From Paraspadella gotoi (Eukaryota > Animalia > Chaetognatha): DNA of 64,000 nt. The stretch is taken from positions 6,281,074 through 6,345,073 of the forward strand of contig JBJCIZ010000239.1 of the NCBI GenBank assembly GCA_051294375.1, in the 5' to 3' direction. Shown piece after piece: positions 5,964-59,281 of the stretch. The notes under the pieces were generated by a model. It was not told the origin of the DNA. It worked only from the letters and a program-made list of their open reading frames with translations, and made no database searches. Positions within the stretch are counted from its first letter, which is position 1. Each line of letters begins with the position of its first letter. A program made the translations under genes and the position numbers.

Positions 5964-8900
5964 CTCTCTCTCCTCATCTCTCTTCTCTCTATCTCTCCTT
6001 CATTCTCTCTCTCACTCAATATCTCTTTCCAAGATGGCGTCGATTCCACGACCGACGAAGACTCGCGGTCGCCTTTTTCTTCGGACGCGACGCTGACCGT
6101 AACCTTTGCTACGTCGGAGGCCACTCCCCTTGCCACGTCCACTGCCACGTCCATTGCCACGCCAATAGCCACGCCTCTTGCCGGTCAAAATATACAGCGA
6201 ATCGTGGCCAGTGGCGACGGCGTATCGGTCAGCACTATCGTTGCCGGTCGATCAGGTTCGATTGATTTATTGATCGATTTGTCTGATTTATAAACGGTTC
6301 ATTTGATTGCTCGATTGGTGGATCGATCAATTTATTTTTCCATTGTTAGAAATATCAATCAATTCAGTGTTCTTTAAATTATTGATTGATATGATTTTTT
6401 TAACGATTGATTAGTTGATTTATTGATGTATAGAATTGTTTGTTCGATTTGTTGATTGATTTTCCGATTGATTTCACCCTTTAACTTACCCCCTCATCCG
6501 CCCCCGTTAAATGTCAGCCCATAGTCCCACCCTCCTGTCCCACGCCCCGCTCTCTCAACCCAATCCCCACCCCCACCCTAACCTCCATCGTCCCTCCACA
6601 AAATCCCGCCTTCTCGCTTCTCTCCTTCGCAACGACATCGACGCTTCGGACCCGGAGGGAAGCGTCCGCCATCTGCTCGGACGCGATAACAAAGCGTCCG
6701 ACTCGGTACAAAGCGTTCGCCGACTCCTCGGACCTGACATCAATGCTTCCGACATCAATGACATCAATGACATCAATGACATCAATGACATCAATGACAT
6801 CAATGACATCAATGACATCAATGCTTCCGACTCGGAGAAAAGCGTCCGCCATCTCCTAGGAGGCAATGTCAACTCTTCCGACCAAGTGAAGAGCGTTCGG
6901 CGTCTTCTCGAATGTAACAACGACTCCTCTGCCCCGAAGAAAAACGTCCAACATCTCCCCAGACATCCCGTTGACGCTTCCCACCCAGTAAAAACCGTTC
7001 GGCGTTTCCTCGGCTGCGAACAACTCATCGTAGTCGACGAAGAAGACGACGATAAATTTGCCAAAACAAAGAGGACAAAACTCGACAACAACAACGAACC
7101 CGACTGCCTGAATCTCAACGATTCATCGGTTCCCGAAAAGAAACCCTCGGTCCAACGCGTCCTTAGCCCGGCGCTTCCGGCGCTTTCGGCGCTTCCGGGT
7201 TTCCTCGATCGGCGTGAGAATCGCGACGTCGTCGTCGTCGTCGCCCCAGTCGGCGTTGTCACTCCCTCGACGACGACGATTCGGACGACTAATGCGTCTC
7301 CGGCGTCGCCGATCTTCGCTCCGGCTTTTATCTCGGCGCCGGATTTTATCGACGCCGCTCTGAGTTCGACGACGACGCCGGCGGAAAACGAGTGAGAAAA
7401 GAATTTTTTTTATAAGTCTTTAGCTAAAACACAAATTGTTTGGAAAAGTAAATCTTTATTAAACCTTATTAAAGTGTCATTCAAATATTTAAAAAAAACC
7501 CAATTAAAATTGTGCAAATGATATTAAAGAACTCATTTAAAATGAAAAACCAGCCTCGTTTCCAACATCATTTGCATATAAATTTCGATCCTTCAAAGAT
7601 CTCGTTCGTCTACCGTCAACTCTTCATCGTCTTCTTCGTCGCCCAATTCGTCGTCGACGTCGTCGTCCCCGGCCCAATCTCTCGACGGCGACCGCCTTCA
7701 AGGGTTGAAGCGCTCCATCCTCAAGTGCGTCGCGAGTCGCGGAGAGGCTCCGTCGAAGCCGCTCGTCGCTCGGCGGCCGAAGGACCCGTCGACGAGCCGT
7801 TCCGGGGAAGCGGAGGCCGCCGCGCCGAAGAAGAGTCGAGGTGAGATTGCGTGGGCGATTGTGGTGAATGTGGTCGGACTTGGTGAGTGGGTAGATGTGA
7901 TGAGTTGATGGATGTGACGAGTGGGTGAATGTGATAAGTGGGTGGATTTTGCTCCTTCCATCGCGGGTCGTTAAACAGAAGTTTATTAGACATGTGGTAA
8001 TAGACGCGCTACAGTTGGGCTAAGACGACTAATCCGTAACTTCTATAACCCCTCTAGCGCCATGAAACGGGTCCCTGGGCTTGGAACAGGCTTGAGGTTT
8101 TGCCGCACGCCCAAAGGCGGCCTTACGGCCGTCCTCACGCTTCCCGCAGGGTAGGTACGGGTTGGGATTGAACCCGGTACTTCGTGGTCAAGAGCTGCTG
8201 GCTTTACTCAATGAGTCCACGGACTGAAGGTGTCATGCTTTTAGGCGGGGGTGAACCTCGCAATGCCCGACTACAGACCATTTACTTTTCGCGAAATTTT
8301 AATTCCAGGAATGAATATTGATTAATTGGTACAACCAATATAAAATTATCCATTCATTTAATAATAAAGCTATCTTCTGCCCTGACTTTGGACAGGCTTT
8401 GGTGTTTAAGGCCTCATCACTCTTACAAGATAATGACATAAGCAGGTCCCTGAGCTTTCAATCAAGACTCTCTAACAGTCCCGTTTTATTCATAATAATA
8501 ATATATAATATTTACCCATATTTAAACCAAAAAAAAAAAGGCTCTGTTACGAACAACTTAGAACTCTAACGATTATCCCGCCCTCCCCCCAACGCCCCCT
8601 CTCTCCCGCTTCTCCAGCCTTTCCCAAGCAGGACGGACGAGACCGATCCTCCAAGGCCGACATGTCGTCCGTCCCTTTCCAAAACGTTCAACTGCCGTCG
8701 GCCGTCGCTGCCCACGTCCGCTCGGCGAAGACCGAATTCCGTTCGTCCGACGTGGATTTTCAAACGACCCAGGTTTTGATTTTTTGATTTTTGTTTTGAT
8801 ATTGATTGATTGGTTTGATTAATTGATTAATGTTGATTTATTGATTTATTTTCTCATTGATCGATCAATTGATTTTATTAATTTGTTAATTGTTTGAATG

Positions 8901-22011: not shown

Positions 22012-23270
22012 AAGAGAGAGAGAGAGAGAGAGAGAGGAGAGTGAGAGAGAGAGAGAGAGAGAGACGAGAGAGAGAGAGAGAGAAAAAAAAAGAATGAAAG
22101 AAAGAAAAAAACGAAAAAAAAAGAAGAAAAGCAAAGCCAGAAAGACAACAATCCAAACAGACAGACAGACTAACCTCACTTCCTCCCCCCCCGCCCAGGC
22201 CATCACTCGCCTCCGCCGTCGTCGTCTGCAGCATCGTCGCCTGGACGGTGTTCCCTCACACCGGCGACATCCTCTACGACGATCGCCAACATCGTCTGCA
22301 AGATGGGCGTACCACTCTGCGCCGTGGTGCGCCGCAACGACAACAAACCTGCGCCTGCCAGTAAGAGGAAGGGGGTAATCCTTTTTTTAATTCAAAATGG
22401 CCGCCGTTTAGTGTTAGAGAAAATCGGCTTTTTCGTTTCGCCGGGTAGGGTTATTATATATTATTATTATTATTATTATATTTTATTCTTTATGTTATGT
22501 GTCGCATATTATATTTTTAGTGATGTATTTTTAAGATTTTTATACTAATATTTAGACAATTATTTATTAAAATATATAAGGTACATCTCGAGAAATCCTC
22601 CCATCTGGTTTAATAAATATTTATATTATTATATAATAAATATGGTAAATATATATTATACGATTTTTACCCCGCCATCCCGGGCGACATAAACGTCATA
22701 CAACGCGGTCGTTTTAACTCCAATCAGCTGTAGCGTAATCTTCATTTAGTCTATAGTCTATACTTTACAAAGTAGAGTCAGAAATTTTATGCATCCGTCA
22801 TAGGACAACGTAGAAGAAAAAAAAAAATAACATTAACTCCGCGCGGTTTGTTTACCATCGCATCTTGCAATCCATCGTTTTCATTTCACTTGTAACCATT
22901 CAGCTTCAGCGACTACCTTACCATTTTAATTTCGATTAACTCATCCAGCGCTTTTCTCCCATTTTTTTAAACCTACTCCATTCGCCTCTTCCCTGACTCA
23001 TTCCATTCATAATTCCATTCCCCCGCCCCGCGCTCGACATCATTCCATTCCTTAAAAAAAATAAAAATCTTCTGCCATGCGCATGCCCTTCCTTTAAAAA
23101 AAAAAAAAGGGTTGGCATGTCGAAATGCGGCCTCTGCTTCAGCTTCGGCCGTCCTGGTCGATGTATTACAACGGATGTAAAATACGCATTTCCTCGGCGC
23201 CGAGAAAGTTCGGCTCAACGACCGACGAACAGGGTACGCGAAAAAAGGGGGAAATTAATTTTTTTTTCTT

Positions 23271-23360
<90 letters not shown>

Positions 23361-23599
23361 AAAAGGAATGGAGCATGGAAAATGTGGAGCCTTCGTTCTC
23401 CTCGTTGCGGCGTGGAGCATGTTACATCCAACGGTTGCAAATACGCGCGAAGCAGAATTCCCAAAAAGTTCGTTGAACGAAAAAAAACGAGGTAGGGCGA
23501 CAGATTTAAAAAAGGTAAGTTAAAGGAAGGGACGACTCGTCGCGCTTGAAGAAAACGTGGAGAAGATGCCGTAAGGAGAAGGCCCTGGATTCCGCTCTG

Positions 23600-27100: not shown

Positions 27101-29186
27101 NNNNNNNNNNNNNNNNNNNNNNNNNNNNNNNNNNNNNNNNNNNNNNNNNNNNNCCTCTCTCCCTCTCTCCGCCCTACGAAGGGGTCTACAACGAGAACGT
27201 GGAGGGCCCTTTCTACAGTCACCTCGGCGCCGCCCACGACGTCCCCACCATCCGCAAGATCTTCGAGAAGCGAACAGGCTACACCGGCGAAGCCATCCGC
27301 ATCGAGAAGGTCGCCTACACGGGCAAAGAGGGGAAGAGCTCGATGGGATGCCCCATCGCCAAGTGGATCATCCGGAGGAGCGGGGAGACGGAGAAGATCC
27401 TCGTCGTCGTCCGGCAGAGGCCAGGTGTGGAGATGGGGAGAGGAGGAAGANNNNNNNNNNNNNNNNNNNNNNNNNNNNNNNNNNNNNNNNNNNNNNNNNN
27501 NNNNNNNNNNNNNNNNNNNNNNNNNNNNNNNNNNNNNNNNNNNNNNNNNNNNNNNNNNNNNNNNNNNNNNNNNNNNNNNNNNNNNNNNNNNNNNNNNNNN
27601 NNNNNNNNNNNNNNNNNNNNNNNNNNNNNNNNNNNNNNNNNNNNNNNNNNNNNNNNNNNNNNNNNNNNNNNNNNNNNNNNNNNNNNNNNNNNNNNNNNNN
27701 NNNNNNNNNNNNNNNNNNNCCCCCCCCCGCCCAGGCCATCACTGCGCCTCCGCCGTCGTCGTCTGCAGCATCGTCGCCTGGGACGGTGTTCCCTCCACAC
27801 CGGCCGACATCCTCTACGAACGCATCGCCAACATCGTCTGCAAGATGGGCGTACCCACTCTGCGCCGCTGCGCCGCCAACGACAACAAGACCTGCGCCTG
27901 CCAGGTAAGAGGAGGGGGGGTAATCCTTTTTTTAAATTCAAAATGGCCGCCGTTTAGTGTTGAGAGAAAATCGGCTTTTTCGTTTCGCCGGGTAGGGGTT
28001 ATTATATATTATTATTATTATTCTTTTATTCTTTTAATGTTATGTGTCGCATATTATATTTCTAGTGATGTATTTTTTTAAAGATTTTATACTAATATTT
28101 AGACAATTATATAAAATATATGAGGTACATCTCGAGAATCCTCCCATCCTGGTTTAATAAAATGATTTATATTATTATATAATATATATGGTAAATATAT
28201 ATTATACATTTTTACCCCGCCATCCCCGGGCGACATAAACGTCATACAACGCGGTCGTTTTAACTCCAATCAGCTGTAGCGTTAATCTTCATTTAGTCTA
28301 TAGTCTATACTTTACAAAGTAGAGTCAGAAATGTTTGCATCCGTCATAGGGACTGACGTAGAATATAAAAAAATAACATTAACCCGACGGTTTGTTAACC
28401 ATCGAATCTTTGCAATCCATCGTTTTTATTCACTTGTAACCTTTCAGCTTGCAGCCGACTAACCTTACCATTTTAATTTCGATTAACTCATCCAGCGCTT
28501 TCTCCCCTTTTTTTTAAACTTACTCCATTCGCCTCTTCCCCTGACTCATTCCATTCATAATCCATTCCCCCGCCCCCGCGCTCGACGTCATTCCAATTCC
28601 TTAAAAAAAATAAAAATCTTCTGCGCATGCGCATGTTACTTCCTTTTAAAAAAAGGGTTGGGACATGTCGAAATGCGGCCTCTGCTTCAGCTTCGGCTGT
28701 TCCTGGTCGATGTATTACAACGGATGTAAATACGCCATTTCCTCGGCGCCGAGAAAGTTCCGGCTCAACGACCGGACGAACAGGGTACGCGAAAAAAGGG
28801 GGGAAATTAATTTTTTTTTCTTNNNNNNNNNNNNNNNNNNNNNNNNNCTCTCTCCTCTCTCGTGCGTGCGTCTGCGTCGCTTCTCTCTCTCTCTTCTCTC
28901 TCTCTCTCTCTATCTCTCTCTCTTCTCTCTTTAAAAGGGATGGAGCATGGGAAAATGTGGGAGCGCGTGTGTGGTGCGGTTCAGGTTGCGCGATGGTAGC
29001 CATATGTACACCAACGGTTGCAAATACGCGCGAAAGCAGAACTCTCCCCAAAAAGTGGTCGTTTTGAACGTAAAAACGATTGGTAAGTGCGAAAGATTTA
29101 AAAAAAGGTAAGTTAAAGGGAAAGGACGACTCGTCGCGTGGATGAAAACGTGGAGAAGATGCCGTAAGGCAGAAGGCCTGATTCCG

Positions 29187-36114: not shown

Positions 36115-36399
36115 CTCTCTTCTCTCTCTCTTTCATCTCTCTCTTTTTTTCTCTTTAAAAGGGATGGAGCATGGGAAAATGTGGAGCCTCGTTCTCCTTC
36201 GGTTGCGCGTGGAGCATGTACACCAACGGTTGCAAATACGCGCGAAGCAGAATTCCCAAAAAGTTTCGTTTGAACGAAAAAAACGATTGGTAAGTGCGAA
36301 AGATTTAAAAAAAGGTAAGTTAAAGGGAAAGGACGACTCGTCGCGTGGATGAAAACGTGGAGAAGATGCCGTAAGGCAGAAGGCCTGATTCCGCTCTGC

Positions 36400-36446
<47 letters not shown>

Positions 36447-36927
36447 ATCTCTCTCTCTCTCTTTCTCCTCTTTTTATTATGAAAATAAAACATTTCTTTA
36501 ATATTATAAAATTAAAATATGTCTAAATATATAATATGAGGAGACTAACTCCTTTGAAAATATTTCGTCTCTTTTTCCTTCTACCGCTCTCTCTCTTCTC
36601 TTCTCTCTCTCTCTCTCTCTCTCTCTTTCTTCTTCCTCTTCTCTCTCTCTCATATATACTTTACCCTCTCTGCTCTCCCTCTCCCTCCAGTCCGTGGAGG
36701 AGATCTGTTCCAAACAGTATCGACTCGAGGAAGACCTCGTCCGCAAATGGGAGGAGCTGGACGACGCTGAAAAGGAGCAGCAGCGCCGCATCAAAAAATC
36801 GACCTTACCCGATCTGGAGGAAGAGATCGAGGCCAGGCTGCAGAATCTCGCCACTTACCTGGCGCCGGTTTATTCGAAATACGTGCCAGAGGCTTATCTC
36901 AATATGGTGAGGGAAATTGTGGGAATG

Positions 36928-36966
<39 letters not shown>

Positions 36967-37752
36967 CAGAGCATTTGACTCCATTTCACCTCCTTCACAG
37001 GTCAACACGGAGCAAGTCGCTCCCCACTGCCGCCTCGGCGAACTGCCCGGGCGACCCTTCGCCGGCGTCACCGCCTGCATGGACTTTTGCGCTCACGCCC
37101 ACAAGGATATCCACAACATGAACAACGGGTTGACCACAGTGGTCACCCTGACCCGGCATCGCGGCCTCTCCAAACCGGACATGGAGCAGCTGCACACGCT
37201 GCCGCTTTACGTTCCGGAACCGACGGACGAGTTCGGGAGCGAGGAGGCGCAAAAGGCCAAGATCGCCGCGGGTAAGTTAAGGGGAGGGGGGAGTATGTTT
37301 TTATCTTTCCTTCCTTTCGTTTTTTTTTCGTTTTTCGCTTTATCGTTTTTCGTTTTTTTTTTCTTTCCAATTTTCTTTCTTTCCTTTTTTTTCCTTGTTT
37401 CTTTCTTTACTTCTTTTTTTATTTCTTTCATCAAAACCTAAATATCCTTACCCAATCCAAACCTCACTCCCACAGGGTCATTCGAATGCCTTACCAAATA
37501 CCCCACCGAGGTAAGGATACGCGCCGTCCCCATGACGCCCTGCAAGCGGCGCAAGAAGACAGAGGACGGGAAGAGCCCTACCCCTGGTAAGGGCCGAGGC
37601 CGTCCGCCGGGACTATCCCCCAGCAAGGTAAGGAAGGTGGAGAAAGGGTTTTTGGGTGGGTTTGGCTTTAACTTCCTAACGAACTTACCTTTTTGACCCT
37701 TTTATTTTTTATACCCGTTTTCTTTCTTTCTTTCTTTCTATCTTTCTTTCTT

Positions 37753-39680: not shown

Positions 39681-40792
39681 ACCATAAAAATGAATAAATA
39701 TAATAATAAATAAATAATAATAATAATAAAATATAATAAAATAAAATATAATAAATATAATAAATAAATAAATATAAATATCATAAAAAAGAAGAAAAAC
39801 CTGCTCGCAAGAGAACCAACCAAGTTATGCTTCCTTTCCTCGCCCCCCCCCCTTAAACGGCAGAACCACCGATGCGCCCTCCATCGGCGGCGTCATCCTG
39901 CGACGCGTCGACAATCAGCGAAGACGCCGACGACGACGGTCTCCGGGACGTCACCGTCATGAGTGACAATGAAGATAATTTCAAGGACGAGTCAATTGGT
40001 AAGTTGCTCTCTTTTCATTTCTGTTCCAGAACTTAATTTTAAAATTAAAGTTAAACCTTTAACCCAATTTCTAGCCGTTTACCCTAATCCCCAGCTTTAA
40101 TATCTAACCCTAATCCTTTTACCCTTAAACCTAATCCCTAACCTTTAACCCTATTTTCAAATAAAAAAAAAAACGGATTCGATTCCGAATTTTAAAATGA
40201 TATGGGGCGTTTTGGGAAAAGAAGTCCTGTATTGTAATTATGTACGTTCTACCTCTTTTTTACCCTTTTATTCCAATATTACCGTTTTATTGACTGCTCC
40301 TCCCTCCCTCCCTCCTTCCTCCCTCCTTTCCTCCCTTCCTCCCTTCTTCCTCTCCCTCCCTCCCTTCCTCCTTTCCTCCCTTCCTCCTCCCAGGGGGCGT
40401 GGCCATCGCTCTCTCTCACGGCTCCGTCCTCTTCGAATGCGCAAAACGAGAACTTCACGCCACAACTTCGATCAGAGAACCGAACAGAACGAGGCCGACC
40501 AGGATCAGTTTGGTCTTTTATCAGGTAGCTTGATACAGGGGCGTGTATAGGGTTAGATTACAGGGACGTGCAGAGAGGTAAGCACCTTTCGCAAAGTAAA
40601 AAGAAATATTAATAGTTAGTTTTTAGTTAGTTTTAGTTAGTTTTAGTTAGTTTTTAGTTTAAATATAAGCTTGCCACTTAAATCTCTTAACAATTTTATC
40701 TTTCCCTCACCTTTCCCTCCCTCACCTTCCCCTCCCTCTCTCTCTTCTCTCTCTCTCCCCCTTCTCCTCTCTCTCTTCTCTCTCTCTCTCTC

Positions 40793-40826
<34 letters not shown>

Positions 40827-42645
40827 AGCACAAAAACATGAACGCGTGTGAGACACGCGTCGAGAGAATTTACTTGAAAAACTGGAGGAGAAGAGAAGAG
40901 AAAAAAGGAGGAACGTGAGTCGGCGCTGGCGCGGCGGCGCTGCCGCGTCGGCAGCGGCGGCGGCTGCTGCAGCGTCAGCTGCCTCTACTGCTGCGTCGGC
41001 AGCAGCTGCATCGTCGTCGGGCTGCAGCGTCGACGGGTTTCCTCCGGCAAGCCGGAGGTCAAACCTCAAAGTCAAAACTGGTGAGGTTTTTTTTTGTGTT
41101 TTGCTGTTTTGCTGTTTGTTTTTTTTGGTTTTGTTGTTGTTTTTTTTTTTTTTTTTTTGTTTTTTTGAGAGTTTTTTTTGACGAAGATATATATATGTAG
41201 CTGGCATTTTGTTTATAATATGCAATTTTTTTTAGACACTAAATCACGATGCTCGTTCGCTCGCTTACTTACTCACTTTCTCAATAACTCATTCTCTCTC
41301 TCTCTTCTCTCTCTCTCTTCTCTCTTCTCTCTCTCGCTTCTTCTTCTCTCTCTCTCTCGTCTCTCTCTCTTCTCCTCCCACCGCGGATATATTTGCATTC
41401 TCACCACGGCCTAATCTCACCCCCCCACCCCCCTTTTTTTCCACAGAGCCGCGTTTTCTCAACGACGGAAAATTCGTCTCGAACCTTCGACGGCAGTTCG
41501 GTCGAGGTTAAGTTAAAAAAGCGGAGGCCGAAAGCATTTGGTTGAGTATCTGGTTCAGTGTTTGGGTCGAAATTGAGAATTAGATACGATAATGGGACGC
41601 TTTCGGAAGATAGTGCCAACGGTTTAAATCAAAATAATACCGTGCAAGAACTTCTTTGCTAAGTTTAGCGATGTTAGACATATATATTAATGCGAGTTAC
41701 GAATGAGTCGAGTTCTTTACGACTTAAGATATCAATTAGTTAATTATCAAGACTAACAATTAAAATTACTATACGCAATGATTAACATTTCTTTCCCGCA
41801 GTTTGAAGAAGACAGAAAAGCCGTTTTACGATCCGACGACGACGACGACGACGACGACGTCGAAAAACCTTTGTCCGCCCAAGGCGCCGCAGGTACGAAC
41901 CCTATTGCTCACCGATCGTTTCGTCCGGTCGTTGACTTACTTTTTTATGCTCTACTGTATGAAATTTTTTAAAAAAATTCTTTGAACTAGTAAAGAATAA
42001 TCGTATGTGTATACTATACTATACTTAACATACCAAACTATGAAAAAGACTTTGATTGATCTGGATCTTGCTATATCTTGTAAGAGGGATGAAGGCCTGA
42101 ACCCAGCATAGCCTGTCCGTTGTCATGAGCGAAATACCTCAATTTATTAAATGAAAATTAATTAATAATTTTTGTACCGGTTTTACCTATTTCATAAATG
42201 TTGTTCCTTATAAATTAAGTATATAAATTTGAACCAATATAAAATTATTGAATTATTATCCATTACTTTGGACAAGCTAAGCACTTTTTTAAAATTATAA
42301 GTTTTCCATAAAGATTCTGCCACACTCCCGGGAGCAGCTGGCTTCACTATCTGTGAATGTTCTATGTTCTATCTGTGATTGTTGTATGATGTTTTAGGAA
42401 CTGTTTCAATTTTGTTTAAGGATATATTAATAGATTTCAACTTAAGCAATCTCGGAAATTCGTTTTACAACATTTACAACAATTCGCCCTTCACTATACA
42501 GGCGTCATCTTTAAACTACGAAAGCGTCATGCCCGAATTTCTGCCCTACGTCTCGCCTTCCCTCACGCCCCCTACATACTCGTACACGGTCATGCAGCCT
42601 TTCGAGGAACCTCTGGTCACCGGTCCTTATCACAGATGGATATGA
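4759..42645 (+). CDS. TET: TET methylcytosine dioxygenase, multi-exon gene span (includes artefactual internal duplications; start codon not located)
   Basis: Exons encode, in order: PQCKC; [10 protein letters not shown]...[19 protein letters not shown]; [14 protein letters not shown]; [14 protein letters not shown]; [12 protein letters not shown]; [19 protein letters not shown]; [25 protein letters not shown]...[15 protein letters not shown]; and C-terminal VTGPYHRWI-stop. All are hallmark metazoan TET motifs. Confidence 0.97.
6736..6825 (+). repeat. Coding 9-bp tandem repeat (gacatcaat)n encoding (DIN)n
   Basis: Directly visible inside ORF 6511-7395. Confidence 0.95.
8000..8223 (-). mobile_element. 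tRNA-derived SINE in a TET intron
   Basis: Minus strand begins ccgtggactcattgagtaaagccagc...ccgggttcaatcccaacc (A-box-like element plus B-box GGTTCAATCCC). The body is shared with the element at ~16.05-16.22 kb. Confidence 0.75.
10010..13860. other. Indel-rich duplicate of ~14000-17530 (probable assembly artefact)
   Basis: Colinear exons, introns and SINE; differences are mostly single-base insertions; bounded by N gaps. Confidence 0.85.
16050..16220 (-). mobile_element. Second, internally deleted copy of the same SINE family (noisy duplicate at ~11940-12130)
   Basis: Shares taagac..aatccgta.cttct, aacgggt..ctgggcttggaa, ttacggccgt and tggctttactcaatgag with the 8.0-8.2 kb copy; the B-box region is lost. 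Confidence 0.65.
18140..18356 (+). repeat. Coding 15-bp tandem repeat encoding (Q-M/I-A/T-P-G) pentapeptides, about 14 units
   Basis: caaatggcgccgggt-type units within ORF 17977-18546. Confidence 0.9.
19078..19277 (-). repeat. ~200-bp dispersed structured repeat, copy 1
   Basis: Reverse complement aligns end to end with 39092-39296, including the identical block gacttccctctgcgttggcaaagcgagacc. Confidence 0.85.
21085..26570. other. Noisy extra copy of the TET Cys-rich/DSBH region, degrading to garbled sequence after ~24400 (probable assembly artefact)
   Basis: Colinear with 26572-31340; exons are frameshifted by scattered indels. Confidence 0.85.
26639..27904 (+). CDS. TET: TET Cys-rich domain exons, cleanest copy (26639-~26771, ~27170-27424, 27735-27904)
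   Basis: DILEQERL...[18 protein letters not shown]; [84 protein letters not shown]; [19 protein letters not shown]...[14 protein letters not shown]. Confidence 0.95.
28656..28784 (+). CDS. TET: TET Cys-rich loop exon, variant A (129 nt, phase 0/0)
   Basis: aaag|GGT...AGG|gtacgc; translates [43 protein letters not shown]. Noisy copy at ~23110-23233. Confidence 0.9.
28938..36160. other. Noisy duplicate of ~36162-43140 (TET 3' half; probable assembly artefact)
   Basis: Every exon, intron and repeat is reproduced, with frequent 1-bp indels; the junction lies in a (CT)n tract. Confidence 0.85.
36162..36289 (+). CDS. TET: TET Cys-rich loop exon, variant B (128 nt as assembled; 129 nt if the A-run has 8 A as in the 23.4 kb copy)
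   Basis: aaag|GGA...TTG|gtaagt; translates [40 protein letters not shown](KRL). Noisy copies lie directly after variant A at 28938-29082 and ~23366-23491. Confidence 0.88.
36691..37627 (+). CDS. TET: TET DSBH N-part exons (36691-36906, 37001-37271, 37476-37627), including the Fe-binding HxD
   Basis: ...[31 protein letters not shown] | [51 protein letters not shown]...EQLHTLPLY...[16 protein letters not shown] | [15 protein letters not shown]...; splice phases are consistent. Confidence 0.96.
38452..38763. mobile_element. MITE-like element of the same family with a degenerate (CCTAAC/CCTAAT)n core (noisy duplicate at ~31310-31625)
   Basis: Left agctctcttttccaagagcgccccat; right aagggtcgttctgggaaaataaggct; telomere-like hexamers at ~38550-38705. 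Confidence 0.6.
39092..39296 (+). repeat. ~200-bp dispersed structured repeat, copy 2 (noisy duplicate at ~31960-32176)
   Basis: Inverted relative to 19078-19277. Hairpins cagtgac/gtcactg, gggtc-ggaa-gactc and gccc..at/atgggc. Confidence 0.85.
39864..41080 (+). CDS. TET: TET DSBH C-part exons (39864-39998, 40394-40524, 40829-41080) with the second Fe-ligand His and the 2-oxoglutarate-binding Arg
   Basis: [15 protein letters not shown] | [43 protein letters not shown] | HKNMN... Confidence 0.95.
42502..42645 (+). CDS. TET: TET terminal coding exon
   Basis: cag|GCG...; ends [14 protein letters not shown], matching the conserved TET C-terminus (human TET3 VTGPYSRWI). Confidence 0.93.
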   Translation, partial: ASSLNYESVMPEFLPYVSPSLTPPTYSYTVMQPFEEPLVTGPYHRWI

Positions 42646-43746: not shown

Positions 43747-44264
43747 TTATGACTCTTTCTCCGCGTTCTTCTTAGCGATGATCCTTTGATACAATCGACT
43801 TTGCAACCATTTGTGATTCGCATCTTTTTCACGTGATTTATTTTCGTCGTCGCTTTCGTTTTTTTGACACCGTTGCTTCGCTCGTCGGAAGATGCTTAAG
43901 ATTCTCTGGAAATGGTAAGGGAGGAGAGAGAGAGAGAGAGAGAGACATTGAGAGATGGACGGATAAAAGTCCTAATTTTAGATCAACTCAATATTTACTT
44001 ACCTGTAATCGAGGAAGTAGGTTAAAAGGCGGCGGGAGAACAGTCCCGTGCTCCACCGACTGCCAGATAAAACACGCGCGAGAGAATTTCCATTCACGAT
44101 CGCTGTTTCTCAACGTGTCCTTTAAAGCCGGGTGTGCGAAGAATGAATTAGGGATCGACGGACATATTATTGGTCAACTTTTTTTTTGAGAGCTAGGTGT
44201 GCAACGGAATAAAATAATAGTACAATCGATATACAAAGGTTATTTATCATTTAGGCTGGAGGAG

Positions 44265-44303
<39 letters not shown>

Positions 44304-47300
44304 AACCTGAAAGGATTGCCCCATTTTGGCGACGAGAACGTTCATCATAAGCACCACCAGCAGAGCGTGATGGAGCGCGCTGATGGAGTAGCCGAAGAAC
44401 TCGGTCGCCTCGTGGGCGTTGGACTCGATGTCGAAGGGAAGTCGGAGGCGGAACTCGTCGACGATCCGCTGGAAGGTGGCGTTGGTGAGCGTCGGATGGC
44501 AGAGTAAGTTGCGGAGGTGAGTCATCGTCGGTTCCGGGAAGAGTCGACCGTCCGAGTCGCGAAGATTTGGGACGTAGACCTTCCAGGTGTAAAGCGAAGT
44601 GAAAATTGTAAATTTAACATTAAATACAATTGTAAAGGAATAGTAAGTAAGGAATAAACAACTCATGAACATTAATTTATAAAATATAATTTTATTATAA
44701 ATTTGTAATTTACGCATTAGGCTTTATTTAACCATATGAATGTTTAAATTTCATAACAGCCTTTTTTTNNNNNNNNNNNNNNNNNNNNNNNNNNNNNNNN
44801 NNNNNNNNNNNNNNNNNNNNNNNNNNNNNNNNNNNNNNNNNNNNNNNNNNNNNNNNNNNNNNNNNNNNNNNNNNNNNNNNNNNNNNNNNNNNNNNNNNNN
44901 NNNNNNNNNNNNNNNNNNNNNNNNNNNNNNNNNNNNNNNNNNNNNNNNNNNNNNNNNNNNNNNNNNNNNNNNNNNNTCGCCTTGTAGGCCTTTGGATTGC
45001 CCATTCCGAAGACGTCCCACAACACGTTGGTGAGGATCTTCTTGTAGTTGGACATTTCCCAGGCGGTGGATTCGCAGAGAGGAAGATTAGTCACGGGGTC
45101 GGTGCGGATGTGCCAGTAGTCCTGAGTTTAAGGAGGGTAAGTTCATCTGGGTGGGAATTTTTCATTCTCGACTCGTTGCGTTTTTCAAGGAACAAAGAAT
45201 TTTAGGAAAAAGGAAAGAACGGAAGAGAAAAGGAATTAAATGTTCCGTTCTGTTCTGTTCTGTTCTGTTCTGTTCTGTTTTGTTCCGTTTTGTTCTGCTC
45301 TGTTCTGTTCTGTTCTTTTTCATTTTCGTTTACCTTCCCTTTTCCTTTTCCATGTCCCTTTTCTTTTTTCATGTCCCTTTTCCTTTTCCATCTCCCTTTT
45401 CCTTTTTCATGTCCCTTTTCCTTTCATTTCCTCTTCCCCTTTTCATCTTCCTTTCTACAACTCACCCTGTAGGCAAAATAGAGAAACTGATATCCCATCG
45501 AGAAGCAGATGATGACAGCGACGCCCATGACCAACACGTAGCTCACGTCCCTGATCGTGCTGCACAGCATGATTTGCAGCACGCCGACGGAGCGGTTCAG
45601 CTGGCAGATCTGCAGCAGCCGCAGGAAGGAGAGCAGGGTGGCGAGGAAGAAGAAAATCTCCGCAGCCAAGAGNNNNNNNNNNNNNNNNNNNNNNNNNNNN
45701 NNNNNNNNNNNNNNNNNNNNNNNNNNNNNNNNNNNNNNNNNNNNNNNNNNNNNNNNNNNNNNNNNNNNNNNNNNNNNNNNNNNNNNNNNNNNNNNNNNNN
45801 NNNNNNNNNNNNNNNNNNNNNNNNNNNNNNNNNNNNNNNNNNNNNNNNNNNNNNNNNNNNNNNNNNNNNNNNNNNNNNNNNNNNNNNNNNNNNNNNNNNN
45901 NNNNNNNNNNNNNNNNNNNTATTGGAGACAAATTTGTGTGGACGGAGCCTGATTACCATGGGTTTTTCCTTAAATGTTATTTTTGACTAATAAATTTAGT
46001 AATTGAACGTTTATTAAATGTATTTATAGTTCAATAAATGTTTATCAGCTCATTATTCGGACTTTTGATATCAAGTTCCAATGCACAATCAAATATAAAC
46101 TTTTAGATGGCCAATTTATTTTATATGCGGCCATCTTTGACTAATTGTATCATTTAATAGACTTTTGTTTTTCATTTANNNNNNNNNNNNNNNNNNNNNN
46201 NNNNNNNNNNNNNNNNNNNNNNNNNNNNNNNNNNNNNNNNNNNNNNNNNNNNNNNNNNNNNNNNNNNNNNNNNNNNNNNNNNNNNNNNNNNNNNNNNNNN
46301 NNNNNNNNNNNNNNNNNNNNNNNNNNNNNNNNNNNCCAGTCCCGTCAACCTGTCATCCGACGCTACGCCACACATATTGTTTTCAATAAACGATAATTGA
46401 AAAAATAAAAAAGTAAATAAGATTAAAACAAACAACAACAACAACAGCAACAACAGCAAAAACAAACAAAAAACAAAACGAAAAAAAATACCTCCACCCC
46501 CTCCGCCGCCGCCGCCGCCGCCGCCTTCCCCTCCGTTGACCAAAAACCCGACGCCCCAAGTGACGTAAGACGCCGCGAACGCCGCCGCCGTCGCGACGGC
46601 GTACAAGTTCCACGACTGAGAAAAGTAGAGTCGCGCCGCTTTGGCGCAACGCCAAGGAACGGCGCCGGCCACGTGCGCCGCCAGCGCCGCCGAGTAGACG
46701 AGAAGTACGAGCTCGATCCGGTCGAGGCCTTGGCGGTGGAGGCTCATGTGGCGGGGACCTCCAAAGGCCTGCTTGGTCACCTGTGGGTGGGGAGATGGGA
46801 TTGATTGGTCGCTTGAAAGAGATTGATTGGTGAAAGGAGACCGGATAATGATTGGTTCGAATGATTGGAGGGAATTGATAGGAAAGAGTTGATTAGTTCG
46901 TCGGATTGATTGATTGATTGACTAATTCTGATGGTTTTGACCAATTAAAAATCAATTAGAAAAATTGGAAAGATTTCTAAAAAAAATAGACNNNNNNNNN
47001 NNNNNNNNNNNNNNNNTTAGACTGTCTTCTCTTTTTCTTGGGTCGTCTCTCGAATGTCTCCTCCCTCTCAGGGTGTGTCGCTCTCCTCTCAAGTCTCTCA
47101 TCTCTCTCCCCTCTTCTACATCTACTTCATCCTCGTCGATAGCGTCGTACTCCGTTCACTCTACATCGTGCCATCGCTCGCTTTCTCGTTCTCAATCTTT
47201 CTCGTGCGTAAACTCACTGTCCGTGGCACGTCGGTCCGAGAAGAATCTTCTATACTGGTAGATCCTCGGCTCTCAGACCGCCCCCCGGTCGACACTTCAT

Positions 47301-50300
47301 CCCACTTAGCGTCCCCCCCAACCCCATTCCCCCCCCTTCAAACTCTCAACTCGCAGCAGACCCCAGAGAAGACTCAAAGCAGACCCAACTCTCACCCTCG
47401 CAGCAGAGCAGAACCAAGAAGAACGACGTATGCCGCGTAGAACCTCAAACCCTGGCGGCGTCCCGCTGAGAAGGCTCGAAGGGCCCTCGAGGCGCGAGGA
47501 AACTGGCACGAGCATCTCGTAGATGAGAGAGTCGCAGGCGAGGGAGACCCGGAAAGCCAGGGAGGAGGGAGGCGGTGCCATGTTGAGTGTGGAGGAGGAA
47601 GCGTGCGGTGGGTGTCGAGCGGATGGCGAAGGGCTGCGTGCGAGTAGAGAGCAAGCCGCAAGCAAGAGCAGGCAAGAGACGGGGCGAGACTGTGAGCAGA
47701 AGAGAGTAGAGAGAGGTAGAAAAAACTTGAAATACATTTCAAATTTTTTACGAGTGAATTGTGAGATGGAGAGAAGCGAAGAACGAGGAGACTCTCTCGA
47801 AACAGAACGCAAGAACACTGACAGCAGTACAACCTGTCGGTTGTGAGACCTTACGAAGTCGATGTCGAGACACTACAGAGAGAGGAGCATCAGTTTATAT
47901 ATTTTCCCTACACTTATTTATCACTGTGGTCTTACATTACTCTGGATTGGCGCATCTTTTCCTTTATTGGTGTCAACCTTGTTTATTCGATTCTCTCTCC
48001 TCCTCTTTTTCTTGTGTACTAATACTCTGTTATCTCAGAATCTTTCTTGTGTGCCATCTGTAGCTATTTGACTGTTATTGCTTTCTTTAACATTGTAACT
48101 TGTAGTTTTCCTTCTTATTCATTTATCGGTGTGTTTGTTAAGATATATTCCACACACTTACTTCTTTTTTTACATCTTTTGATTTCCACCTTCTGTCTTT
48201 CGTGTGCCTGCCCTCTTAATCTCATCGCTTTGGTTTCGACCTCGTCCCGACTCTAGATCGCGCCACACCCCCACCCTCACTCAAAAAGAAAACTCAACAC
48301 CGATATATATAACATCCCATACAACCACCAGACACACACCCGAACGAACCGCCCACAACAAAATGAAGGCCAAATACTACGTTCAGCCTCAACAAAGTCG
48401 GAGAGCGAAGAGCTCAGCGCCCACGTGGCGCGATGGTGCCCCGCAAGCGACAAAGTGTTGTTAAACGTATCATTCCACCACACCCACGCTTTCTCTCTCT
48501 TAAAATTTGATATCCTGCTTTAATTTGTAAATATGAAGCCGCTAATTTTCTCTCTGCGCAGTAACCTCCTATTTTTTTTTCTCTCTTTCCTGCTCCATCA
48601 TCCCAACTGTCCTCTACGATTACGAGAGTCTGGTTTGTTCACCATATATCGTCCCTAATATACAATACTCTCCTCGCTCTCGATATAAGCAAGTTCAGCA
48701 GTTTTTCCTATATAATAGTTCAGAATCATAATAGGCGTAAGGGCAGAAATACAATCCTCCTATCTATTATAATTTCAGAGGCCAAATTTATTTTTCAATA
48801 AAGTGGAAATAATAAGTTTATCTAAATATGTCATCCCGCTTTCGTAGCTATTATTTCTATACAATAGCCCCGAGGCTCTGTACAATCTGGCCATTAGTCT
48901 AATCCTAATTTCAGGACAAGGCTTTAGGGTTTCATACGAACACGCGTGTAGCGGTGGACTGGAGAGGTACCCAACAGGGAACTCTCGGATAGCCAAAAAG
49001 ACAACATTGAAGGTCCCGCATAGAGGCGCTTACTCTAGCAATTAGAAGTGTGTTTCGTCCGCAAGTTCTAGGGACATGCTTACGCTCATACTTTAGAGAA
49101 AGGACTCTGCCTATGGAATTGAATTGAAATATTCTACGACTGCACCAGCATATATCTCGGATCGACGCGACAGTCTCGGACTTCTACATACCGCGACTCG
49201 CCCTACCTGCGCGTACAATGCCCATTATATCTGTAGTATATAACATATGATACATAAGTGTTTGCGAGATGCCGGTAGTTCCGGCCGCCCCACACTGTAA
49301 CACATTACTAACCTCGCTAGCCAGCTCGTTTAAGGTCAGGGGCCAAGATATTTATTTAGAATACATCTCGGTGAAATTGATGTGACGAATCTCCCTTCAG
49401 CTGGGTACGCATAGTACCGTCTTTGCATAACGACGTACTGTGTATGCCCCCTTTCTGTTTTAGTAGAATTTCATAGGAAAATTTCCACCCCGAAGAGCAA
49501 ACATGGCGCATATCATCCTGACATACAGATACTAACCCCACACCGTATGGGCCATCACACACGTCCAAGACGCCATCCACCTGACCCACACTTCATCAAC
49601 AGCGTAAGCGCATTCCCACCGTCGTCATGCAGAGTGCCCATGCGCCGGACAACGTCGCACACGAAAGACCGCAAATGTCTCTGATCCCAGACTTTTGACC
49701 GCGCCGCGACAACGACTCACCTCATCAAGAGGCCGCACTCGCGCGTGTCCACTCGCCGGCTCGAACCGCCACATACCTCGCGGCTGTCGTGTGGCCTCAG
49801 TATGCAACTCTGCTGCCCGGACTGCCTCCTGTCAGCGTGAGCGCGGAGACTCCGGGAAAAGAGAGGAGGCGAGGCAGATCGGTAGGAAAGCGTGTCAGCG
49901 GACCTCTTGTGCTTCCCGGATTCTCCGGTGCATACTGCGGTCTGGTCCGCTGATTATGTTTCCACCTAACTCCCGGGTTTCTTTCGTCATATCGTATCGA
50001 ATGGTCTAAACACGCAACGCTCACTATAAATTAGACAGTCTCCGTATAGCGTGTGTGCGTCTTACGCCTCATTGTCTCAAAAGACAATACGGAATATGAA
50101 GATCGCACACTCAGAATGACCTATTATTCGTGAGGACCTCCTGCCGTACCGGCGCCAGACCTATGCCAGGACAATCCCTAATAACTATCAGAATGGAAGA
50201 GAATAAGAATGACGTCGCTGAGAGGCGTCACCCGGCTCCATCTTCAACACATTACTTCGTATACCAAATACACGCGTCCTGCCATCAGACGTCTCGTTTA

Positions 50301-53300
50301 TGTCATAGTCATTCCTTGGCAAAGTGCTCCTCACCATCTCGAAGAGTAACAGTTTCAAAGGAAAAATTAAGGACCCGCAATTTCTTGGCGCGTGCACGCC
50401 CTCCTCATCTACTGCGGTTAGTACAATATGTGCTCGTGCTGATACCGTAAAGTAGTTATGTTTCAGTTATATAATGGCACAACACTCTATTAGGACAGGT
50501 CATATCGCCTCTCGCTTCGTGTCCGACATTGTCTCCAAATGGCATGAACACAAGTAACTCGTTTTATATACTTTCTCCTTCTCTTCTGGACAAATCTAAT
50601 AGAGGCAACCTTCATCTTCTACTCCTCTCTCTTTTTTTCTTTCTTTCTTTCTTTCTTTCTTTCTTGCTTTTTTTTCTTCTTTAACTTGTAACATGTAGTT
50701 TCCTTCTTTCTTTATGTTTTCTTTCCTTCTTTTTTTAAATTTTTTTTCACTCTTTCTTTCTTCTCCTTTCTTCCTCTTCCTCTTTAANNNNNNNNNNNNN
50801 NNNNNNNNNNNNNNNNNNNNNNNNNNNNNNNNNNNNNNNNNNNNNNNNNNNNNNNNNNNNNNNNNNNNNNNNNNNNNNNNNNNNNNNNNNNNNNNNNNNN
50901 NNNNNNNNNNNNNNNNNNNNNNNNNNNNNNNNNNNNNNNNNNNNNNNNNNNNNNNNNNNNNNNNNNNCAGCAGAAAGTGGACGATCATCCAACCGCGCCC
51001 GATGACGCTGTAATGAGGCAAACCTTCGGTCCAGATGTCCTCGACGATCCCCTGGCAGAGAGGGTGCGCCACAAACTCTTTTTGCCTTTTGTGCATCGCG
51101 TCCTTTGAGGAAGGGGGGGAAAACAATATTAATAATGTATAACTAAAGACTAAATGCATCGCTGGGCTATATTTTTCAAAAGAGCCCCAAATCTGCTTTA
51201 ATTCTATTTAAGGAAAGTTTTAGGTTTAAAGATTAGGTTACGGGTCAAGAATTTGGAAAGACATTAAGGTCAAGGTTTAGGATTAGAAGTTAAAGTTTGG
51301 GTTAGGGATTAGTTATTACTGTTAGAGAAAATTATATGGGAATTGAATTGAAATATTCTTTGAACAATTGTGAGAGAGTCTTGATTGAAAGCTTACAGGG
51401 TCCTTTTATGTTATCTTGTAATAGTGAAAGGGGCCGTAACTTACTTTAGCATGTTTAAGGTCAGGGGCAAGATAGTTTATTTATTAAATGTATGTGTAAT
51501 CTTTATATTGGTTTTACAAATTTCATTAGAAAATTTCCCCCCAAAAAATGATATCATCTAAATCTAACCACGATTCCAACGACGACGACCAACTGCCCAC
51601 ACCTTCAGCACAGCGTAAGGATCCCACCGTCCATGCGAATCCGTCCGTCCCAGCAGCGTTTCCACCTCCGCGCCGCGACAAGCTCCCAGCAGAGCCGCGG
51701 CGTGGCCACTCGCGGCAGCCGCCATCTCGCGATAGTCCTCGAAGAACTTGGGCTCCTTGAGAATCGGGAGAGGAGGTAGGAAAGTATAGATTGGGTCGGT
51801 CGGTCGGTCTGTCGGTATGTCTATCCGTTTTGTTATGTTAAAAATGCATATAATTCGCCTATAGTCGGTTGCTCATTTGTTAAGACAGGAAAAAACCTCA
51901 AATTTTAGTGACTGCTAGCGCCGCCTTCAGGAAATCCTAAAACTATAAGGAATAAAAGACGGAATTACTTGTCATAAATACACGGGCTCAGAACGTTTTT
52001 TAGTCATGTCATGTCATGTCATATCAGGTGATCAAAGGAAAATTCACGATTGGATGAACCGATCTTGTTAAAAATATGTTTACTGTTTGTCCGTAGTTAT
52101 TTTTTATTTCACAATCTTTGACAGTCTTTCTATCTTTCATTGTCGATGCTGAAGTAATTTTAATCGGTCTCTTCTAATAGAGGCAACTCTATCCGTCTGT
52201 CAATCTGTGGATAAGGCCCCAAGTTGGCAGAAAATTTTCATAAGTAACTTCTTAGCCAAGCTTGAGCAGATGTTTTCACTCAAATGTGACACCGGGTAAC
52301 AGCATAAGAAGTCTCGCTTAAAGGCGAGATAAACTTGTCCCTAAGCCCGAGTACAAATCTGTCTCTCCGCTCCTAACTGCGATATGATTATTTAATATGA
52401 TCTTGAATGCGATTGAATTTCTCAATCTCATTTACANNNNNNNNNNNNNNNNNNNNNNNNNACCTCCTGTGTTAAAGCCGAAGTGAAAATGTAAAAAAAT
52501 TTAACCATAAATACAATTGTAAAGGTAATAGGTAAGTAAGAATAAAAAACTCATGAACATTAATTTATAAAAAATTTTATTATAAATTGTAATTACGCAT
52601 TAGCTTTATTTAAACCATACTGAAGTTTTAAATTCATAACAGCCTTTTTTTCATTTGGATTCTTCTGTTCTTGAAGTGATAGAAAGACAATAAAACTCCT
52701 AATTTAAATTTCTCATTCATTTCATCTCTCTCTTCTCTCTCTCTCTCTCCTCTCTCTCTCTCCCCCGTCCTCTCTCATCTCTTCCTCTCTCTCTCTCTCT
52801 CCTCTTCTCTCTCTCTCCTCTCTCTCTCTCATCTCGCCTTGTAGGCCTTTGGGATTGCCCATTCCCGAAGACGTCCACAACACTGTTGGTGAGGAATTCT
52901 TCTTGTAGAGTGGACTTTCCCCAGCGGGGATTCGCAGAGAGGGAAAGAATTAGTCACGGGGTCGGTGCGGATGTGGCAGTAGTTCCTGAGTTAAAGGGGA
53001 GGGTAGTTCATCTGGGTGGGAATCATTTTCGGACCGTTGCGTTTTCCAAGGAACAAAGAATTTTAGGGAAAAAAGGGAAAGAAACGGAAGAGAAAAGGAA
53101 TTTAAATGTTCCGTTTTCTGTTCTGTTTCTGTCTGTTCTGTTCTGTTTTGTTCCGTTTTGTTCTGCCTGTTCGTTTCTGTTCTTTTCAATTTTCCGTTTA
53201 CCTTCCCTTTCCTTTTCCATGTCCCTTTTCTTTTTTCATTCCCTTTTCCTTTCCATTCTTCCCTTTTTCCTTTTCATGTCCCTTTTCTTTCATTTCCTCT

Positions 53301-55476
53301 TCCCCTTTTCATCTTCCTTCTACAACTCACCCTGAGGCAAAATAGAAGAAACTGATTATCCCATCGAGGAGAAGCAGATTGATGGACAGCCGACGCCCAT
53401 GAACAAACACGTAGCTCACGTCCTGATCGTGCTGCAACAGACATGATTCCTGCAGCACGCACCGACAACCGAGAAGCGGTTCACTGGCAGATCTGACAGC
53501 AGCCGCCAGGAAGCGAGAGCAGCGGTGGGCGAGGAAAGAAGAAAATCTCCGCAGCCAAGAGGTAATTCTCGGAAGACGTCCAGAGGCGTAACGAGATGAA
53601 GGGGATGGGGAAGCTCCGGAGAGAGAGAGAGAGCAGAGAGAGAAGAGTGAGGTAATTAGAGTGAAACGGAGAGTAGAAACCGCCCAAGCGAGGCGGAGAG
53701 AACGGAGACAAGACGCTGACCCCTACGAGAAGGAGGTGAGTTATTTTGGCAAATTTGTGAACACTCCGTGGCCACGGACGCCGAAATTACCCATGCAGGT
53801 TTTTCACCCATTAAACTTTATTTTTGACTAAATAAAAACTTTAGTTACATTGAACGCTTTATTAAATTATTTATATTTCACATAAATTGTTTATCAGATC
53901 ATTATTTTACCGGACTTTTGATATCAAGTCTCCAATGCACCACGAATTCAAATATTAAACTTTAGATGGCATTTATTTTATATGCGAGCCCATACTCTGA
54001 CTAATTGTATCATTTAATAAGGACTTTTGTTTTTCATTAAAACTAAAGAGTCTCATCTGTTAACTTTTGTTTTCATTAATTGCTTTCTTTAACTCTTGTT
54101 TTATCTTGAAATTATTCAGTGTCTTGATTTTACTCTTCCAATGAATAAATTGATATACTTTTATATCCTGAATGTTTTTTATCTCCTTCTCATCAATGTA
54201 ACTAATACTATTTACAAAAAGAGAGAACTTTCAAACTAGAGGAGAATCTTTTCATCAATCAAATAATTAAAAGACAATCAGTTGATACCATAACGTTGTG
54301 CCTTCCCTGCGGTCAACTACAGCTAATACATCTAAGAACCACATTCGTTGTCCTGTGGTCGTCATCAACCGTCTACTAGCTACAGGTCGGCCGTCCCCGA
54401 TCCAACCTGATCTCCACACCGACTAACGCTTCCCAAACATATTGCTTTTCAATAACAACGATCTAAATTAAAACAAATAAAAAGTAAATAAGATTAAAAA
54501 CAAACAACAACAACAACAGCAACAACAGCAAAAACAAACAAAAAACAACAAAAACGAAAAACACAAATACCTCCACCCCCTCCCGCCCGCCGCCGCCGCC
54601 GCGCCTTCCCCTTCCCTCGCTTGACCAAAAAACCCGACGCCCCAAGTGAACGTTAAGACGCCGCGAAACCCGCCGCCGTCCGACGCGGGCGTACAAGTTC
54701 CACGACTGAGAAAAGTAGAGTCGCGCCGCTTTGGCGCAACGCCAAGGAACGGCGCCGGCCACGTGCGCCGCCAGCGCCGCCCGAAGTAGACGAGAAGTAC
54801 GAGGCTCGATCGTCGAGCGCCTTGGCGGTGGAAGCTCATGTGGCGGGGACCTCCAAAGGCCTGCTTGGTCACCTGTGGTGGGGAGATGGGATTGAATTGG
54901 TCGCTTGAAAGAGATTGATTGGTGAAAGGAGACCGGATAATGATTTGGTTCGAAATGATTGGGAGGGAATTGAAGGAAAGAGTTGATTAGTTCGTTCGGA
55001 TTGATTGATTTGATTGACTAATTCTGATGGTTTTGACCAATTAAAAATCGAATTAGAAAAAATTGGGAAAGATTTCCTAAAAAAAAATAATACGCACGCT
55101 ACTCACCTTCTCATCTCTTGCCTTACACTATCCTCTCCTTCACCTCAATTCCCCCACACAACCCTTAGACTCGTCTCTCACCCCACCCCCCGTTCGCACA
55201 CTTCATCCCCTGGTCCCCCCCCAACCCATTCTCCCCCCCTTCAAACTCTCAACCCGCCAGAAGCAGACAAAGACAGAACACTCAAGAGCAGACCCAACTC
55301 TCACCTCGCAGCAGAGCAGAACCAAGAAGACGACGTATGCCGCGTAGAATCTCAAACAATCTGGCGCGTCCGCTGAGAAGGTCGAAGGCGTCGAGGCGGA
55401 GGGAAACTGGACGAGCATCTCGAGGATCGGGGCGAAAGCCGGGCGTTCTTTTGAGGTGTGTGTGTGTGGAGAGAGA

Positions 55477-55550
<74 letters not shown>

Positions 55551-58500: not shown

Positions 58501-59281
58501 GCCGCCTCGTGACAGGCGGGACAGGCGGCGCCGCGGACACTCGAAACCGGCCGTCGTGGTCCCCTCGCGCGTCGATTTTCGATCTTCGGAGTCGCGAGAG
58601 TCGATTCGTCAGCAGCGGATCGTCCGCGGCGTCGGCGGCGGAGGCACGGCGGAGCGTCGGGGACCACGATCCGGCACGCACCAGTTACTCGCAATCCATC
58701 GCCTCGATCTTTGCGCGACAGAGAGAGGGAGAGTGGCAAGATCATGTGGGGGGGGGAACTTTGGTGGATGGGGGTGTGTGGGGTAGGGGAAGGGCGTCGG
58801 GGTTGTGCGAAGGAGAGCAGGAGGGAAGGATTGAGTGATTGCGTTGAGGCACAATGCACGTTGAACAACATTGTGCTAATTAACGTTAATGTATAAAAAA
58901 ATTGTTTGTTAATTTACCAAGTAGGCTCTTTATATATATATTTTTTGGGACAGAAATGGGGCGATTTCGGATAATAGAGCCAAAGAGAGACCGACCGACC
59001 ATAACCTCCTACCTCGTCTCTCCCATCCTGACGGCGTGAGCGAGGGCATCTCCCAGAGGCAGCCGCGTCCGCAGCCTCGAGCGCCTCGTCAAGAAGCGGA
59101 CGAGATCCTCGCGTCTCCGACAGACGGCGTTGGCGAGGAACCCGCGCCCTCTAAAGTCCAAGTGGGCGGCGTCGACGACGGGGGCGTTCGTCTCCAGCGC
59201 CCTCATCGCCGATTTGGAATCGCCCGTCGAGATGAGTTCGTCAATCTCCGCTTCGAGGGACGGAGCCTCTTCGTCGGCCAT
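43747..59281 (-). CDS. TRPC: TRPC-like (canonical TRP family) cation channel; exons approx. 59013-59281, 58375-58708, 57580-57856, 51603-51755 (copy 56580-56732), 50968-51102 (copy 55877-56056), 55305-55448, ~46495-46780, 45467-45672, 44981-45121, 44307-44579, 44003-44119, 43747-43905
   Basis: Ankyrin-like N-terminus (GDALAHAVRMG); LASPTLLRAEDP; EPKFFEDYREMA...LLGACRGAEVETLL; QKEFVAHPLCQGIVEDIW; S4-S5 LSFLRLLQICQLNRSVGVLQIML; pore VLWDVFG; S6 VLMMNVLVAKMGQSFQ; TRP box DREWKFSR followed by LPPPFNLLP; TAA stop at 43749-43747. Confidence 0.92.
47000..57440. other. Overlapping noisy duplicates within the TRPC gene: 52460-55440 matches 44580-47520; 50610-52436 matches 55660-57440; 47000-50610 is a garbled copy of ~55100-57185
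   Basis: Colinear anchors recur, e.g. cacaccttcagcacagcgtaaggatcccaccgtc at 51598 and 56573, garbled at ~49590; segments are bounded by N gaps. Confidence 0.85.

Follow-up and report, generated by a model that had tools for sequence, protein, structure and literature searches.

The single animal TET gene in the 64-kb stretch of DNA analysed here (the window) carries, one after the other, two diverged versions of the exon for its substrate loop, called A and B below. These twin exons are genuine and genomic, not artefacts of assembly, and B is the default exon: splicing from the upstream exon U into B and on into exon C (U->B->C) is shown in two species, with one exon used without the other. 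As the probable explanation we favour an old tandem duplication of the loop exon, with A likely a minor, mutually exclusive alternative that gives an enzyme form with different DNA contacts. The preference of TET for CpG and its readout of flanking sequence have been traced to a few residues of this loop (PMC8786823, PMC9451156).

Results

By its domain and its ligand residues the gene product belongs to the metazoan TET dioxygenases, and oxidation of 5mC is predicted for it. Two exons give matches above cut-off to the Tet_JBP domain (PF12851), the iron ligands HxD...H and the 2OG ligands R-x-S are present (the equivalents of H1382, D1384, H1881, R1896 and S1898 align; numbering is that of human TET2, checked against the 463-residue crystal construct), and all Fe/2OG and 5mC-pocket residues that were checked are conserved. 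The Cys and His residues of the Cys-rich domain are also conserved (C1193, C1271, C1273, C1289, C1298, C1358 and H1380), and we take these, C1289 and C1298 included, to be zinc ligands. Identity to the best animal TETs is 51–55% over about 335 residues, and a tree of 90 rows, a quick version from which the phylum cannot be named, places the protein on a long branch in a supported set with Owenia and arthropods. The Cys-rich plus DSBH architecture is that of metazoan TETs (human TET2 catalytic domain, PDB 4NM6/5D9Y; PF12851), from which the protein departs by a lineage-specific insertion in exon C. The insertion, about 40 charged residues long, stands at the start of the exon (36691–36830) and is absent from human TET2; its start is conserved in a second species.

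A paper on an arrow worm genome describes three TET copies without CXXC, gene bodies that lack methylation, and the filling of gaps with long reads (PMC12460157). The CpG observed/expected ratio of the window, 1.19, would fit the unmethylated gene bodies of arrow worms, and the exon pair goes unmentioned in the portions of that paper and the three supplement files that were searched.

The region around the gene is badly assembled. Blocks at 21–24.4 kb and 26.5–30 kb repeat one another, as do those at 28.9–36.1 kb and 36.1–43.1 kb, at 88–94% identity with many indels, and false duplications joined at microsatellites are abundant in the window. An earlier reading of the sequence alone had reported A followed by B in two separate assembled copies (about 23.1–23.5 kb and 28.66–29.08 kb). 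The order is indeed present in both; the copies look like haplotypes, not paralogues, because the 22–23-kb copy matches 8 of the 14 intron alleles by which X1, a run of this species, departs from the 28-kb copy. The 22–23-kb copy accordingly looks like a second haplotype at raw-read quality. Elsewhere in the window, the exon after Y1902 (40829–40920) probably contains an assembly error of one base close to the equivalent of H1912; ion-channel gene fragments, falsely duplicated in the assembly, lie on the minus strand at 44200–59300 (weak Pfam Ion_trans match at 45427–45672); a long open frame with C2H2 zinc fingers spans 61436–64000; and a 294-codon open frame at 6511–7392 contains (IND)n and longer internal repeats and has no Pfam match.

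The features used below are as follows; X3 is a run of a different species.

27735..27904, + strand: exon U, constitutive, upstream; ends ...TCACQ; equivalents of R1261, C1271 and C1273; 3' end joined to B in X1
28656..28784, + strand: exon A, 43 codons, phase 0/0, equivalent of TET2 1275–1311; only unspliced in X1
28785..28937, + strand: short A–B intron with a long (CT)n tract; 153 nt, of which 25 are the N's of a gap, as against 133 nt in the 23-kb copy
28807..28811, + strand: candidate distant branch point TTAAT, predicted, its A 25–26 nt past A's donor
28938..~29077, + strand: exon B as assembled immediately after A, with many errors; end approximate
36162..36287, + strand: exon B, clean copy, default exon; 42 codons by RNA, two extra T's at the donor as assembled
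36691..36906, + strand: exon C, downstream, begins SVEE; joined to B in X1 and X3
37001..37271, + strand: exon D, HxD iron-binding motif (HAHKD), equivalents of N1387 and H1416
40394..40525, + strand: late catalytic exon; equivalents of H1881, R1896, S1898 and Y1902
23110..23491, + strand: A, intron and B as assembled a second time, probably from the other haplotype, inside a gap-free U-A-B-C-D stretch

A and B are tandem, homologous, in phase 0/0 and of similar length (129 and 126 nt), with 28 of 40 residues identical. Exon A has an open frame of 43 codons, an acceptor that reads AG before GG and a donor that reads AGG before GTAC, and B lies 133–153 nt downstream of it in both assembled copies. 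Both exons align with human TET2 G1275–L1311, both keep C1289 and C1298, and they have in common the rare W1276, M1278 and K1280 and the TTTAAAAG acceptor. Most of what the sequence-only reading had described is therefore borne out, namely two homologous exons in tandem after the CACQ exon, equivalent to human TET2 ~1275–1312, with both Cys kept and an acceptor (AG before GG) shared. Its phase of 0/0 holds for both exons. Its length of about 43 codons each is right for A and needs amending for B, which has 126 nt and 42 codons and ends ...LNEKNE; on this the RNA contigs of both runs, X1 and X3, concur with the copy at 23.4 kb (exon B at 23366–23491). The ending KRL (EKKRL) that had been given for B does not hold, as the 29.07-kb and 36.28-kb copies carry two extra T's and the RNA ends in EKNE; likewise the clean copy, placed at 36162–36289, starts at 36162 and ends at 36287. 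The extra T's at B's donor (36280–36295; 29065–29085), absent from the third copy (23480–23500) and from the RNA contigs, come either from an error or from an allele that shifts the frame. Some 25 nt past the donor of B there is a second donor-like GTAAGT.

A run search returned three runs, of which X1 alone, the sole run of this species, contains the stretch, matching 0.58 of the words; no run with the stretch is on record as RNA. X1 consists of contigs and is treated as RNA because those that join exons agree fully with the exon sequence and have about ten times the depth of the intron; that they stem from a very recent retrocopy was considered and judged unlikely. A 1829-nt contig of X1 at a depth of 40.9 runs from the end of U into the first letters of B and on to C, with no differences over B, and a 679-nt contig of X3 has the same U->B->C junctions. 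Spliced X1 contigs have depths of 39–41. Exon A is found in X1 solely within a 280-nt contig (28519–28798), unspliced across both splice sites at a depth of 5.3, next to 4.0–4.5 for the neighbouring intron contigs; the unspliced contigs tile from U to A with breaks of 1 and 4 nt and match A with no differences. Among the X1 contigs, which drop rare junctions, there is no U->A, A->C or A->B joint and no loose end at either boundary of A. Contigs drop such junctions and measure depth poorly, and what they show for the X1 sample goes no further than A being a minor form at most. At 80% likeness X3 has no contigs on U or A, blanks that can be false, and X2 holds nothing relevant and no A-like contig, an absence that is not proof.

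Thus the junctions that the sequence-only reading had proposed for mapping divide into U->B and B->C, which are found, and U->A, A->C and A->B, which are absent from the X1 contigs. The two exons are not both constitutively included: the main transcript skips A in two species. Unspliced X1 contigs cover the U–A intron and A (27905–28798) at depths of 4–5, with none on the intron after B (36290–36395), an imbalance for which delayed splicing ahead of B or a filter effect may be responsible.

Silent sites are saturated between A and B. Sixteen of the 24 identical residues with degenerate codons use different codons, all seven four-fold sites differ, and three serines are switched between TCN and AGY. 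With 28 of 40 residues shared as against 72 of 120 nt, and pS at 0.87 as against pN at 0.29 (Fisher p 4e-7), the exons differ by codon-preserving substitutions, unlike the indel-dominated assembly duplicates, as had been claimed from the sequence. The B of X3 differs from that of the window at 19 of 121 nt; nine of the ten listed differences are synonymous, and X3 retains Ala1290 and Thr1295. At silent sites the split from the X3 species would, on this comparison, be near saturation. The duplication likely predates that split, because X3's B keeps Ala1290 and Thr1295 while A has the ancestral Ser and Tyr, and selection has probably acted on A over a long period, since S1290A and Y1295T of B are common to the second species.

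Exon A keeps its open frame, its AG/GT splice sites and 22 of 25 near-invariant residues, meaning positions whose residue is the same in 95% or more of 239 homologous segments. In a simulation of neutral decay by substitutions only, the probability of keeping at least 22 of the 25 is 0.73 at 0.05 substitutions per site, 0.24 at 0.1, 0.009 at 0.2 and 0.0002 at 0.3, and at 0.5 it happened in 0 of 40,000 trials. Neutral decay is therefore rejected for at least 0.2 substitutions per site, and a recent lapse (at most 0.1) is compatible. It follows from the simulation that A was under selection through most of its history, with a brief recent lapse still fitting, and marks of long purifying selection are supported for both exons. 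The absence of differences between X1 and the window across A is no evidence of selection, because haplotype sharing can explain it.

The residues of the loop differ as the sequence-only reading had listed them: A keeps S1290 and Y1295 and has R1302I, and B keeps R1302 and has S1290A and Y1295T. In addition, A has A1283L and S1284C, and B has R1307K. Judged by alignment to TET2, the losses are complementary, B being without S1290 and Y1295 and A without R1302. The three residues never occur together in one exon version, which makes for a variant loop and leaves family membership unaffected. Among the 239 homologous segments, S1290 is present in 236 and Ala in 3, position 1295 is Y or F in 238 and T in none, R1302 is present in 237 and I in none, and A1283 and S1284 are found in 236 and 235. 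Unlike metazoan TETs at large, the expressed form thus combines Thr1295 with Ala1290, and exon A has Ile1302. The only two segments without R1302 (ENA records P0214 and P0215) both carry C1284, as exon A does, and this pairing hints that C1284 without R1302 is tolerated.

Y1295 stabilises the G:C pair of CpG (PMC8786823), and an S1290A-Y1295A mutant of TET2 is reportedly much less active (second-hand in PMC9516565). When the equivalent of R1302 was replaced in mTET3, activity was severely lowered and the preference for A/T at +1 was gone (PMC9451156). Form B is accordingly predicted to select less for CpG or to have lower activity on CpG DNA, and form A to keep the CpG contact, bind DNA more weakly and ignore the +1 base. 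R1302I is predicted to damage the activity of A, which could be a low-activity form that damps the enzyme. As far as its residues tell, the expressed enzyme (B) has an unusual CpG-contact loop that is conserved in two species.

The geometry of the A–B intron is likely of a type known to enforce mutual exclusion, with a predicted branch point. In the gap-free 133-nt intron, adenosines stand solely at positions 3–25 and 128–131 with a pure pyrimidine tract between them, and the sole YTRAY has its A 25–26 nt after the donor of A. In the copies of the intron, AG is absent for 119–139 nt before B. A lone A at -26/-27 before the acceptor of B, in two of three B copies, makes an alternative near branch point possible. 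OGDH exons 4a/4b owe their exclusivity to branch points 25–41 nt from the donor, under a limit of about 50 nt (PMC7969005), and mutual exclusion by distant branch points is also treated in PMC1431707 and PMC2991248. The TET intron resembles those of OGDH 4a/4b (PMC7969005) and of alpha-tropomyosin exons 2/3 (PMC1431707) in its shortness, its long pyrimidine tract, its AG-free zone and its candidate branch adenosine 25–26 nt from the donor. Unlike in those genes, the TET branch point is a predicted one, and long AG-free pyrimidine tracts are common in the TET gene, where they also precede the ordinary exons C, K and L; long AG-free zones are for that reason not diagnostic here.

Other RNA elements lie around A. 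The duplex energies of competing RNA pairings there are not exceptional, being equalled by 6 of 68 and 10 of 68 control stretches. The motif CCT(6-8)AAA, defined after the fact, occurs three times in the window, twice in the U–A intron, and its complement solely at the acceptor of A and just after B (sites at 27922–27937, 28499–28518, 28645–28659, 28792–28806 and 29096–29108); by pairing, one element could mask the acceptor of A and another could loop A out. Two GCATG pentamers, an RBFOX-like motif, stand just upstream of A's acceptor (28625–28635), and GCATG is not enriched across the window (56 found, 56.3 expected).

The duplicated loop exon sets this gene apart from other metazoan TETs: a second copy is found at 0 of 80 TET loci of other animals in metagenome contigs (80 kept from 86 confirmed, with at least 300 nt on both sides in 65 and at least 1 kb in 35, and 33 distinct core peptides). 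No A-type or B-type protein is present among the database matches listed, and searches with exon C and exon B in proteins of up to 2000 residues found nothing. One of the best 150 of 288 representative proteins has two matches (P0121), which are a whole-domain repeat in a fish gene model and not an exon pair. A literature search over titles and abstract openings, outside subscription papers, came upon no account of loop exons of TET being duplicated or mutually exclusive, in agreement with the sequence-only reading, which knew of none. A human catalogue of substitutions derived from tandem exon duplication (homologous mutually exclusive exons) holds 236 events, for example in PKM, OGDH and SCN5A (PMC8373072). 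These three, used as controls, are found in its supplement, from which TET1, TET2 and TET3 are absent. Like the exons of that catalogue, the pair described here consists of homologous internal exons of one phase that stand in tandem, are of old date and evolve under purifying selection, with one of the two skipped where the other is spliced in; it is unlike them in that TET1–3 are not in the catalogue and the use of the second exon is predicted.

Discussion

The explanation that we favour starts from an ancient tandem duplication, which would have produced two versions of the exon for the DNA-gripping loop of TET. B would be spliced in by default and A would be the alternative, probably in a tissue or stage outside the sample; we infer continued use of A from its intactness after a long divergence. 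The branch point of B, predicted 25–26 nt after the donor of A, would be too close for both splice sites to be engaged together, and because of this likely position A and B probably cannot be joined. Form B, without the tyrosine that holds the G:C pair of CpG, would have relaxed CpG selectivity or lower CpG activity, and form A, with the CpG contact kept and the arginine for reading the adjacent base pair lost, would have a weaker hold on DNA. The claim of the sequence-only reading that one TET gene makes two catalytic isoforms by exon choice thus stands in part: the pair is genomic, U->B->C is spliced without A, A bears signs of long selection and the intron geometry is likely of the exclusion type, and no spliced A transcript is present in X1. 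Against A being in use are the missing U->A and A->C joints in X1, the unspliced A at intron-like depth, the missing A-like contig in X3 and the predicted damage by R1302I. A bolder version, in which splicing switches between two substrate-reading loops, a default with relaxed CpG specificity (for non-CpG DNA or 5mC in RNA) and a tissue-restricted form that keeps CpG without flanking-base readout, is a possibility that we put forward tentatively.

The main rival to A as a minor alternative, unlikely in our judgement, is that A was formerly a working alternative exon and has recently been silenced, the gene now being B-only and R1302I, A1283L and S1284C the signs of early decay. It would account for the lack of A junctions in X1 and of an A-like contig in X3, for the loss of three near-invariant residues, one of them predicted to be damaging, and it is compatible with the simulation for a neutral spell of up to 0.1 substitutions per site. 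It has to contend with an intact frame, intact AG/GT sites and the 22 near-invariant residues that remain, and with the fact that the three changes need at least five base changes (2+1+2) in 3 of 25 codons, a clustering that would arise at random with a chance of about 0.02 by rough arithmetic. The two homologues that lack R1302 and also carry C1284 hint, moreover, at a tolerated combination.

Were some transcripts to include both exons, the frame would be kept, as both are in phase 0/0, and the product would have a tandem loop or be non-functional; such joint inclusion is very unlikely, given a main transcript that skips A in two species, X1 contigs with no A->B joint and no loose end at the donor of A, and a predicted branch-point spacing that disfavours it. 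Because contigs of two species splice U->B->C without A, co-inclusion is in any case not the main form. Hardly credible is a chimeric origin of A in the assembly, or its recent insertion from another TET paralogue, in which case the divergence of A and B would be a paralogue distance and not the result of selection in place. In favour of such an origin, false duplications with joints at microsatellites abound in the window, and our comparison covered the TET locus of the window alone. Yet the series of U, intron, A, intron and B is continuous in two haplotype-like copies, the unspliced X1 contigs tile from U to A with no differences in A, and A and B share their rare residues and acceptor.

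Splicing as favoured here, with A as a minor exon exclusive of B, works by a known type of mechanism; what appears to be new is to find it in the substrate loop of TET. One gene holds two naturally diverged loops with complementary losses of the residues that read CpG and its flank, and the expressed form, conserved in two species, is altered at the two residues that the S1290/Y1295 double mutant changes. The pair opens to direct test both the part of the loop in activity on CpG as opposed to non-CpG sites or RNA and the substrate of an invertebrate TET. Were A in use, splice choice would decide the specificity of a DNA-modifying enzyme, for which we found no description for TET in the literature covered. 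If the switch is true, this gene would provide a natural pair of TET specificity variants under one splice choice.
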